A stretch of 41,838 nt of DNA from a virus (Duplodnaviria; Caudoviricetes): IMG/VR virus record IMGVR_UViG_3300032270_000804, positions 1 to 41,838 of that record; one strand, written 5' to 3'. Within the stretch, counting starts at the first letter, position 1; every line of letters begins with the position of its first letter. Shown in pieces: positions 13,607 through 31,660 of the stretch. Both the position numbers and the translations under genes were made by a program. The notes beneath the pieces were generated by a model. That model did not search any database. It was not told the DNA's origin and saw only the letters and a list, made by a program, of their open reading frames with translations.

Positions 13607-13954
13607 ATGGCTTCTTCTATTCCCGTGCGTGCGATTGATCGGCTGCGTAAAGCCGCCAACCTCGAACCCGCCAAAAAGCTGGTGGAACTCAGCGATGGCA
13701 GCACGTTTGAAATGTGGGTGGCACCCTTGACGATGGCCGAACGTGAACGCGCCCAGAAAAACGCCAAATCCGACGACGCCAACGCCTTTGCACTCCAGCT
13801 TCTAATCCAAAAAGCCTGCGACGAAAACGGCAGCAAACTCTTCAGCACTGGCGAAATCGACGTTCTTAAAAACGAAGTCAAGGACAAAGACCTCCAGTCC
13901 CTGATGCTGGCAATCTTGACTGACGACAGCGAGCCAATCGACCCAAAATCCTGA
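13607..13954 (+). CDS. tail assembly chaperone (gpG-like)
   Basis: Between tail tube and tape measure genes; ends GAC CCA AAA TCC TGA with slippery CCCAAAA. Confidence 0.88.
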   Translation: MASSIPVRAIDRLRKAANLEPAKKLVELSDGSTFEMWVAPLTMAERERAQKNAKSDDANAFALQLLIQKACDENGSKLFSTGEIDVLKNEVKDKDLQSLMLAILTDDSEPIDPKS

Positions 13955-14139
13955 GTACCGAACTCCGCAAGGACAGCTGGCTCATGCTCCAATTTGGCGT
14001 CGCCAAAGAGCTGGGCCTAACCCTTTCCCAAGTTCGGTCCACAATGACCGCCGAAGAACTCCTCGGCTGGAGCGCCTATTTCGTCATCCTCAATGAGGAC
14101 CAGGAAAAGGCCATCCAAGATGCAAAACGCCGCCGCTAA
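13948..14139 (+). CDS. tail assembly chaperone extension (gpT-like), reached by -1 frameshift
   Basis: -1 frame open from C-CCA-AAA (13942-13948) to TAA 14137-14139: ILSTELRKDSWLMLQFGVAKELGLTLSQVRSTMTAEELLGWSAYF... Confidence 0.88.
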   Translation: MLSTELRKDSWLMLQFGVAKELGLTLSQVRSTMTAEELLGWSAYFVILNEDQEKAIQDAKRRR

Positions 14140-29353: not shown

Positions 29354-29602
29354 GTGTCAACTCCTGAGCCACAACCAGGATTTTGGCGCGGCGTCAAACA
29401 AGAGACCGTGGCAGGTCTTGCTGTCTTAGCTGTTGGCTCTGCTGCCGCCGGCATTTTTTACCTGGTCTACACAGTCCCCACCAAACTCGACGATCTCCTC
29501 AGCAATCAGGAAATTATCCAAAAGAAGCTTGGTGAGATAGATGACAAAGTTCAAGACCATGACGTGCGTATTATCAAACTTGAAATGTCTCGTTACCGAT
29601 GA
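29354..29602 (+). CDS. single-pass membrane protein with coiled coil (lysis-associated)
   Basis: TM segment VAGLAVLAVGSAAAGIFYLVY followed by heptad repeats. Confidence 0.7.
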   Translation: MSTPEPQPGFWRGVKQETVAGLAVLAVGSAAAGIFYLVYTVPTKLDDLLSNQEIIQKKLGEIDDKVQDHDVRIIKLEMSRYR

Positions 29603-29784
29603 CCGAACGCCTAATCGTCAACACCATCGAACTAGGTCAAGGCTTCACACTGGAGCAACTAGAAAACGAGCGTGGCGACACCTATTACCGTGTTTGCCAC
29701 AAAGGAATCTGCCGTTACTGCGAAGACGCCTACATGGCCTATATGTACGCCGAGGGCATGGGCTGGAACAAGCCTACTGACTAA
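29599..29784 (+). CDS. hypothetical protein
   Basis: 61 aa, YYRVCHKGICRYCED motif, ATGA overlap. Confidence 0.7.
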   Translation: MTERLIVNTIELGQGFTLEQLENERGDTYYRVCHKGICRYCEDAYMAYMYAEGMGWNKPTD

Positions 29785-30082
29785 TCCAAAAATGAATTGC
29801 ATCCTCCAGGTACGGCTCCCAAAAATGCTGCATTCTGTACCATTCTTTCCAATCACTGGAACTTTTTCTGATATTACAATTAAAACAGGCTGCGATCAGA
29901 TTTGATACTGATGTCTCACCACCTTTGGATTTTGGCCTTACGTGATCAAGCGTTCCAGACTTACCTAAATCTTCTTGACAATATGCGCATTTATAGTCCC
30001 AACCCTTCAGTATTTGATCTCGAAATCGAGCCTTAGCCTCACGTTTGCTTAAGAATCCCAGTTCCTCGTCGATGTAGTCCAC
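29774..30082 (-). CDS. HNH endonuclease
   Basis: CAYC...TLDHVRPKSKGG...NLIAACFNCNIRK. Confidence 0.92.
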   Translation of the reverse strand: MDYIDEELGFLSKREAKARFRDQILKGWDYKCAYCQEDLGKSGTLDHVRPKSKGGETSVSNLIAACFNCNIRKSSSDWKEWYRMQHFWEPYLEDAIHFWISQ

Positions 30083-30178: not shown

Positions 30179-30322
30179 ATGGACATTCTCCATAACGCTG
30201 CCTTCTGGATCGTGGTAGCAGCCGCCTCCGAACTGATCGGCCTCAACCCCAAACTCAAAGCCAACAGCATCATCCAGCTGGTGCTTCAGATCCTTGAGCT
30301 GCTCCGCCCAAAAAAGCGCTGA
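30179..30322 (+). CDS. putative holin (47 aa)
   Basis: MDILHNAAFWIVVAAASELIGLNPKLKANSIIQLVLQILELLRPKKR; hydrophobic with basic C-terminus, upstream of endolysin; missed by the ORF track. Confidence 0.7.
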   Translation: MDILHNAAFWIVVAAASELIGLNPKLKANSIIQLVLQILELLRPKKR

Positions 30323-30546
30323 ACGAAATAGGAGCCGATGCTGTTCGTCGTGCCATACGACAAGAACAGTTTGAAACGCTCCTACCAGCCAGGATCACCT
30401 TGGCCGAAAAAGAGTGGCTGGCAACTCAGCCCTCAGCCCCAGAACCCATTGTCATTAACGAATCTGTAGATCACGAGCAACAAACTGGAGACTCCTTAGA
30501 TTTGGGAGGCCCAATGTCCATCCATGCACCCTGGTCCCGTGGCTAA
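30316..30546 (+). CDS. start-less ORF, probable -1 frameshift extension of the holin
   Basis: 76 open codons directly after C-CCA-AAA-AAG; an upstream in-frame TGA at 30295-30297 leaves no start before it. Confidence 0.7.
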   Translation, partial: ALNEIGADAVRRAIRQEQFETLLPARITLAEKEWLATQPSAPEPIVINESVDHEQQTGDSLDLGGPMSIHAPWSRG

Positions 30547-31660
30547 CCCCAACACCATCAGGCTGCTGGATCTCATGCGGTTTTACCGCAGCCTTCCCCA
30601 CCAGATGGCTGCCGTATCCGAGCTGGAGGAGGCTATCAACAAAGCCAACCCCAACATCCTGGGCCGCAATCAGCAATGGTTCAAAACCTGGAGCCAATCC
30701 GGCAAACAAATCCAAATTGAAAACAACTGGGACGGCATGGTCACAGCTGGCCGCATTGCCGGCGCCAAGTACCCAGAGCTTGTAGCTGCCCAATGGGCAC
30801 TGGAATCATCCTGTGGAAAACTCGTCTCAGGCCGCAACAACTTTTTCGGCATCAAGGGCGATGGAACCCTGACCACCACCCAAGAATTCATCAACGGCAA
30901 CTGGATCACAATCCGCGACAGCTTTCTCGACTTTCCCGATATTCAAACCGCTGTTTGCTATCTCGTAAGCCGCTGGTACAAAGACTATAAAAACTGGAAA
31001 GGCTGCAACAACGCTCCAAGCCGCAACGAAGCTGCCCAATGGCTTAAGAACGAAGGTTACGCCACAGATCCGAGCTATCCCAAAAAGCTGATCGAACTGA
31101 TGGACTCCCACGACTCACCCACTGTCCATCCCAAAGAGCACCTGCTAAAAGTCCCCTACGAATACCAGCTCGACAACAAATCCGGCACCGGCTACCGGGA
31201 ATGCTTCAGCTCCAGCTGTGCCATGGTTGCTCGCTACTGGGGCAAGATCGGTAACGACGACAGCTATAACCTCGTCCGCAAAAAGTACGGCGACTCTACC
31301 GACGTTCATGCCCAAGTCTCAGCATTAAAAGAGTTGGGCCTGATCGCCACCTTTATTCAGGATGGAACTGCCGCCAGCCTGGAATCCGAGATCAACATGG
31401 GCTATCCAACCCCCATCGGCTGGCTCCATCGAGGCCCCGTCAGCAATCCAAGCGGCGGCGGGCACTGGAGCGTCGTCATCGGCTACACCCCAAGCCACTT
31501 CATCCTGAACGACCCCAACGGAGAAGCGGATCTCGTTGCTGGCGGTTACAGCAGAAACAAAGGCGGCGCCGGAATTGCGTATTCTCGAAAGAACTGGCTG
31601 CCCCGTTGGCTTGTGGATGGAGCAGAATCCGGCTGGTTCCTACGCATTAGACCTAAGTGA
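30539..31660 (+). CDS. endolysin: GH73 glucosaminidase + C39-like peptidase
   Basis: AAQWALES, NNFFGIKG, GYATDPSY; then YQLDN, CFSSSCAM, GHWSVVIGY, NDP; GTG 30539 or ATG 30524 start. Confidence 0.9.
   Translation: MANPNTIRLLDLMRFYRSLPHQMAAVSELEEAINKANPNILGRNQQWFKTWSQSGKQIQIENNWDGMVTAGRIAGAKYPELVAAQWALESSCGKLVSGRNNFFGIKGDGTLTTTQEFINGNWITIRDSFLDFPDIQTAVCYLVSRWYKDYKNWKGCNNAPSRNEAAQWLKNEGYATDPSYPKKLIELMDSHDSPTVHPKEHLLKVPYEYQLDNKSGTGYRECFSSSCAMVARYWGKIGNDDSYNLVRKKYGDSTDVHAQVSALKELGLIATFIQDGTAASLESEINMGYPTPIGWLHRGPVSNPSGGGHWSVVIGYTPSHFILNDPNGEADLVAGGYSRNKGGAGIAYSRKNWLPRWLVDGAESGWFLRIRPK

Follow-up and report, generated by a model that had tools for sequence, protein, structure and literature searches.

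A slippery site conserved together with a −1 frame extension at the end of a holin-like gene of cyanophages

A small holin-like gene of cyanophages, here called H, very probably ends in a programmed −1 frameshift that gives a short product of 47 aa and a C-terminally extended product of 122 aa. The DNA analyzed, hereafter the window, is the whole 41,838-nt virus record IMGVR_UViG_3300032270_000804 from IMG/VR, which carries terminase, portal, capsid, tail chaperone, tape measure, DNA polymerase and primase genes. The frameshift and its product of ~122 aa had been proposed in a first-pass annotation of this sequence, and our comparison of homologous loci strongly supports the proposal through the association of the slippery site with the extension, called X, and through the protein-like evolution of X. 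Among isolates, the relatives of the window have Synechococcus as their host; the sequencing runs that hold at least half of the window are freshwater or unlabelled metagenomes, and no RNA dataset was found among the listed runs holding it.

Materials and Methods

H or X served as queries to gather homologous loci from IMG/VR, GTDB and GenBank phages. The best 80 of 399–484 confirmed relatives were taken per scan, and the locus set therefore leans toward close relatives. From 374 loci, 282 were kept after the removal of 6 without an H match and 2 that were cut short, and after the merging of identical 240-nt junctions. Matches from genome collections are phage-like contigs in MAGs, which do not name the host. 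The X profile was iterated over all three downstream frames of each locus. Loci were scored as X+ (243 loci) or X− (39 loci); the X+ set comprises 234 profile matches and nine short podovirus-type X frames that the profile missed and that were scored by eye from the C-terminal motif.

Results

In the window, H occupies positions 30179–30322 of the plus strand, as do all features described below unless noted, and encodes the would-be short product of 47 aa from a single ATG at 30179, so that the second form differs at its C-terminus and not by a second start. The gene ends with CGC CCA AAA AAG CGC TGA. As annotated in the first pass, this end holds two overlapping in-frame heptamers, C_CCA_AAA (30307–30313) and A_AAA_AAG (30310–30316), the latter one codon ahead of the H stop. 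The −1 frame extension X (30316–30546) is open for 76 codons after the shift, up to the TAA at 30544–30546, giving a long form of 46 + 76 = 122 aa. The −1 frame is closed upstream of the slippery site by the TGA at 30295–30297, and no start codon precedes the site, as had been stated; possible starts do occur later, with a CTG at 30319 over the H stop, a TTG at 30400 and an ATG at 30514.

The window's tail assembly chaperone gene has its own slippery site, C_CCA_AAA at 13942–13948, in the sequence GAC CCA AAA TCC TGA. It is the same heptamer as the first of the two at H, as had been noted, and it has the same layout of a heptamer, one codon and TGA. The −1 frame of the chaperone gene (13607–14136) comprises 62 codons and matches tail PHROGs. 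Among the 210 ORFs of at least 45 aa on both strands of the window, real and spurious, only five end with a heptamer of the X_XXY_YYZ form, and a −1 frame of at least 60 codons follows such a heptamer only at the lysis and tail-chaperone sites.

The slippery site and X are conserved together. An in-frame X_XXY_YYZ heptamer was found in the last codons of H in 240 of 243 X+ loci, as opposed to 3 of 39 X− loci, and the association persisted after clustering at 80% identity (90/91 X+ vs. 2/17 X−) and in the loci that came from H queries only, or from isolates and genomes (170/172 vs. 3/39). The sharpest control is the subfamily in which H ends in F-P-K, because there the residues are the same and the slippery codons go with the presence of X: TTC CCA AAG was used in 51 of 52 X+ loci but in 3 of 22 X− loci, the X− loci using CCC, CCT, CCG or TTT instead. 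The heptamers of the X+ loci are AAAAAAG (179), CCCAAAG (51), GGGAAAG (8) and AAAAAAC (2), and the heptamer ends 0 or 1 codon ahead of the H stop in 239 loci, with all three stop codons represented among X+ loci. Of the two heptamers proposed for the window, A_AAA_AAG is thus the conserved one, whereas C_CCA_AAA recurs in only 4 of the 179 A_AAA_AAG loci.

A full heptamer is missing from three X+ loci, L092, L173 and L239, which read GTA AAG AAG, GGG AAA AAG and CCG AAG AAG, respectively, and in a further X+ locus, L372, the heptamer lies three codons ahead of the stop; these atypical sites are possibly single-tRNA slips or decaying sites. The three X− loci that retain the heptamer also have it three codons before the stop.

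The state of X changes 12 times on the H tree, a quick tree of 41 columns with most forks open, and at least five of these changes are forced by well-supported branches. Near the window, loci L040 and L041 have lost X and the site together, and H is joined straight to the endolysin start. The frameshift break is present in seven GenBank isolates: S-CBS1, S-CBS3, KBS-S-2A, S-EIVl, S-B28, WH11-B and 7B11-B (L031–L035, L037 and L038). In the GenBank annotation of these isolates, H is missed in S-EIVl (L031, 1501–1641) and S-B28 (L035, 1495–1638), X is missed in KBS-S-2A, S-B28, WH11-B and 7B11-B, and truncated X genes are given in S-CBS1, S-CBS3 and S-EIVl.

Immediately past the H stop, with no start codon available, X evolves as a protein. 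All 234 profile matches to X lie in the −1 frame, which is open across the H stop. Over the first 25 codons after the stop, 39 disjoint pairs that lack a nearby start showed 90, 60 and 272 changes at codon positions 1, 2 and 3, and the ratio of synonymous to non-synonymous changes was 223:118 in the −1 frame, compared with 40:302 and 36:297 in the other frames.

These data make it highly improbable that X forms a gene apart from H, started at a codon of its own such as the CTG over the H stop, or that the break is a sequencing artefact or the result of polymerase slippage. Although the −1 codon overlapping the H stop is CTG in 133 of 243 loci, gene callers start truncated X genes in three isolates, and standalone relatives of X exist, this codon is CTA, TTA, GTA or ATA in another 94 loci and ATG in none, the first possible starts in X are scattered among loci, and 15 X+ loci have no ATG, GTG or TTG anywhere in the X frame. 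The slippery site, moreover, is lost along with X. An assembly indel in the A run had also been considered; the contigs of all four runs compared, one of them possibly the source of the record, show no insertion or deletion at the site, and the seven isolates share the break. Polymerase slippage is improbable, since the heptamer is G_GGA_AAG or C_CCA_AAG in 59 loci, which have no long A run. Fused H-X proteins present in a protein collection were discarded as evidence, since the same search gave many wrong-frame read-throughs of the A run and indel errors explain both. In sum, the three outcomes named in advance as fatal to the proposal, a site that is not conserved, a separate start in the homologs and an assembly indel, did not occur.

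The shift at E. coli dnaX uses an upstream Shine-Dalgarno sequence and a hairpin; at H, no conserved upstream Shine-Dalgarno sequence is present and the hairpins are lineage-specific. A Shine-Dalgarno-like match was found upstream in 7% of 90 loci and in 2.5% of control windows, a comparison of fractions only, control windows without a duplex having spoiled the mean energy. In the window, an RNA hairpin is predicted at 30329–30384, 13 nt past the heptamer (−24.3 kcal/mol, z −4.26), and is a candidate stimulator, but it is not conserved as one structure across the family. Folding 5–65 nt past the site was modestly stronger than in shuffles (mean z −1.19; X− loci, −0.95).

H is predicted to form a two-helix hairpin (helices at residues 7–22 and 30–42) with a basic C-terminus, the last six residues having an average charge of +2.8. 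The family has an invariant Ser-Glu in helix 1 and an invariant Asn, and the hydrophobicity of H is marginal (best 19-residue mean, 1.5). H lies before the endolysin in siphoviruses, and beside the lysozyme or the terminase small subunit in T7-like cyanophages, which in the T7 gene order is the gp17.5 position; by position, this small gene is holin-like. H matched only PHROG 22542 and 15106, whose function is unnamed, as did its remote relatives. A search of Pfam, NCBIfam and PHROG for named holin families with the query, 96 members and 65 remote relatives gave a single hit, of one member to a holin PHROG (E 0.01); a viral fold search with H found nothing, and Atlas look-ups returned unnamed clusters only. 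The earlier label “holin-like” is based on position and shape and not on a match to a named holin family, and we lean toward H acting as a holin or a holin subunit. The H homologs of P60/S-CBP-type podoviruses (L208–L216) measure 65–77 aa and have a charged C-terminal tail encoded in frame, without a slippery site.

The lysis region of the window comprises, in order, an 82-aa membrane protein, a 61-aa ORF, an HNH gene, H and the endolysin. The 82-aa protein (29354–29602), the second membrane protein of the cassette, has one strongly hydrophobic segment and a polar tail. It exceeds H in hydrophobicity and is a candidate rival holin to H, or a candidate partner of it. The 61-aa ORF and the HNH gene, the latter on the minus strand, separate the two genes in the window (29599–30082); in many relatives the 82-aa membrane gene directly adjoins H.

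The endolysin (30539–31660) has glucosaminidase and C39-like peptidase domains. Its start is more likely the GTG at 30539 than the ATG at 30524, since this ATG is absent in L001 and changed from A to G in contigs of two runs. X had been described as filling the gap exactly up to the endolysin; it does reach the endolysin start, but its stop overlaps that start by 8 nt. The N-terminal domain of the endolysin, ~55 aa (30539–30712), has no Pfam name; it occurs close to H in 206 of the 282 loci, joined to different catalytic domains.

X is predicted to form a long helix, a Pro-rich linker and two short strands (pLDDT 90), and its core (30382–30543) ends with the motif GGPMSIHAPW (30505–30534). A fold search with X returned, after the truncated X genes, weak matches to several Synechococcus phage proteins, the first being S-PM2 p159 (E 0.033); solved structures gave no match by either fold or sequence. 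Seventeen of 84 X members matched PHROG 3316 (best E 1.1e-6), with no direct match from the X of the window itself. The X core also matched standalone proteins of 120–155 aa in nine T4-like cyanophages (E 2e-9 to 9e-4, Z = 1000), and comparison with this myovirus family gave an hhalign probability of 97.5 (E 5.6e-12). By these sequence comparisons, the X core is homologous to the C-terminal half of the standalone cyanophage family PHROG 3316 (T4-like GC 852), which includes S-PM2 p159, a relationship that is new here. The two share the helix, the Pro-rich linker, a strand and a GGxMxIxAPW-like end. They differ in that the PHROG 3316 proteins stand alone, with their own start and a hydrophobic or amphipathic N-terminal part that showed no homology to H (hhalign probability 0.2).

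The standalone genes are often found beside lysins. In the myoviruses, seven of the nine are no farther than 2.5 kb from a gene annotated as lysin, endolysin, lysozyme or RlpA-like, a share that is no estimate of prevalence, the phages having been picked by sequence matches; those of S-CREM1 and B3 are not beside lysis genes. H was not detected in any of eight T4-like myoviruses with a standalone X that were tested, while both positive controls matched. A T4-like cluster of an endolysin, a secreted-looking lysozyme or RlpA-like gene and a PHROG 3316 gene occurs in L375–L377, L379 and L381–L383, and is a candidate lysis cassette of phages without detectable H.

Of nine T7-like phages with an unshifted H, six carry a standalone X-like gene of ~100 aa away from the lysis genes: S-SRP01, S-CBP1, S-CBP2, S-CBP3, S-CBP4 and DSL-LC07. 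The S-CBP2 match is weak: at its E value of 0.002, matches also came from 2 of 14 control genomes. The H of this phage, missed by the profile, was counted from a tblastn match and its annotation. Most of these podovirus genes come after a thymidylate synthase-like gene. All 16 shifting records compared, the window included, hold one X match each. X is dispensable, none having been found in P60, S-CBP42, MedDCM-OCT-S37-C6, S-CBS4 or one complete X− contig; a match in P60 inside a 1003-aa ORF was discarded.

Discussion

A close parallel to the arrangement at H is given by the tail chaperones G/GT of lambda and their relatives, where a small gene shifts −1 close to its 3′ end and yields a short and a C-terminally extended product at a set ratio (PMC5009743). 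H would likewise yield a short and an extended form, and the tail-chaperone site of the window itself has the same layout; in contrast to the lambda case, H is a membrane protein encoded in the lysis cassette, and X is unrelated to gpT and forms a separate gene in other cyanophages. The heptamer A_AAA_AAG is shared with E. coli dnaX, where it is highly shift-prone with a single lysine tRNA, according to the same source, although the shift shortens the dnaX product and lengthens that of H. For phage MS2, a frameshift was proposed to control the lysis gene (Kastelein 1982, as cited in PMC10885494 and PMC5009743). MS2, however, is an RNA phage whose lysis gene would be reached by premature termination and reinitiation, with no fused product, and a later title in the same reference list ascribes the activation of the gene to termination.

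We propose that most ribosomes would stop after 47 codons and release the short holin-like protein, and that some would slip by −1 at the two lysine codons and produce the 122-aa form; we infer this share from the conservation of the site and the known shiftiness of A_AAA_AAG (PMC5009743). The slip would be a tandem one of two lysine tRNAs, as at E. coli dnaX, and, by analogy with lambda G/GT, would fix the ratio of short to long form, the shift rate setting the number of H molecules that carry the X core. The long form would tether a cyanophage-wide X core to the membrane and assist or tune host lysis, in a recurrent cyanophage design of a membrane anchor plus an X core in which the anchor here is H. 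The basic C-terminus of H and the podovirus standalone forms, which lack an export signal, weakly suggest that the X core may face the cytoplasm. Its partner is likely not H and may well be a host membrane component, since phages without H or with an unshifted H put the core on a different hydrophobic N-terminus. The N-terminal domain of the endolysin is not a likely partner, being as common without X as with it. We consider the whole explanation, lysis function included, about evenly balanced between right and wrong, the link of X to lysis coming from gene neighborhood.

Dual-start holin/antiholin pairs, such as lambda S105/S107 and that of P21, are two products of one small membrane gene before the endolysin. 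By the logic of such pairing, the long form could be an antiholin that co-assembles with H through the shared N-terminus and delays holes, with the rate of shifting doing what the dual start does in lambda S. The lambda S isoforms differ by two N-terminal residues, whereas the H forms would differ by 75 C-terminal residues through a frameshift, and H falls outside the named holin families. The shared N-terminus, the fixed ratio, the position before the endolysin and the repeated loss of X would all suit an antiholin; the X core, however, is conserved and is a separate gene in phages where no H is detectable, and an H-specific inhibitor needs neither, which makes this reading unlikely.

It is less probable again that the X core has no role in lysis and uses H only as an anchor for a late step, for instance assembly or the takeover of host membranes. 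The podovirus standalone genes away from the lysis genes, the two of nine myovirus genes without an annotated lysin nearby and several marine loci with no endolysin domain within the fetched DNA agree with such a role, but the core is fused to a lysis-cassette gene in both siphoviruses and podoviruses, and the other seven myovirus genes lie near lysins.

We regard as very unlikely a spanin-like long form in which the X core would be periplasmic and help to breach the outer membrane. Its long helix and Pro-rich linker recall such proteins, no convincing lipoprotein candidate was found near the cassette, and a lipobox-like LSSC or LASC is present in S-PM2 p159 and 115 of its 120 listed relatives, four of the myovirus proteins with that Cys also having Cys pairs near the motif. 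This Cys is not conserved in S-B68, B3 and S-CAM7, however; the podovirus standalone forms have no signal, H-X has no lipobox, Cys occurs in just 6 of 243 X frames, and the positive charge at the C-terminus of H favors the cytoplasmic side.

We give little credence to metering of the endolysin as the main purpose, whether through coupled translation at the X stop or through binding of X to the endolysin. The next gene starts 4–32 nt inside the end of X in most X+ loci, and in loci that have lost X, such as L040 and L041, it is the H stop that forms the overlap, but such overlaps are ordinary gene packing, and podoviruses have the terminase small subunit as the next gene. The N-terminal endolysin domain stands beside X− loci (27/35) about as frequently as beside X+ loci (164/221), which also weakens the earlier suggestion of an endolysin tether. 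Frameshift-coupled translation of the endolysin is possible and may occur as a side effect, but it would not explain the conservation of X as a protein.

In the literature examined, most of the programmed frameshifts in tailed phages belong to tail chaperones. PMC10885494, in the part consulted, lists lysins among the genes known to contain a frameshift, after Shearman 1994, and does not contain the word “holin”; neither “holin” nor “cyanophage” occurs in the consulted part of PMC5009743. A full-text literature search, whose coverage did not extend to the S-CBS, S-CBP and S-EIVl genome papers and supplements, found no description of a frameshift in a cyanophage lysis gene.

A conserved frameshift in a membrane gene of the lysis cassette, in widespread cyanophages of fresh and marine waters, would be a new use of recoding, and would link the unnamed families PHROG 22542, 15106 and 3316 to cyanophage lysis. 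Seven cultured phages carry the site, with the genes annotated as truncated or missing, so the proposal is directly testable. More tentatively, and with the balance of probability against it, cyanophages of all three tail types may share an undescribed membrane-tethered lysis module, the X core, directed at a peculiarity of the cyanobacterial envelope, for example thylakoids or a host membrane complex. Such a module would be encoded by its own gene in myoviruses and some podoviruses and grafted onto some of the holin molecules by a programmed −1 frameshift in siphoviruses and other podoviruses. If this is true, recoding would set what the lysis machine is made of, and perhaps the dose of endolysin.
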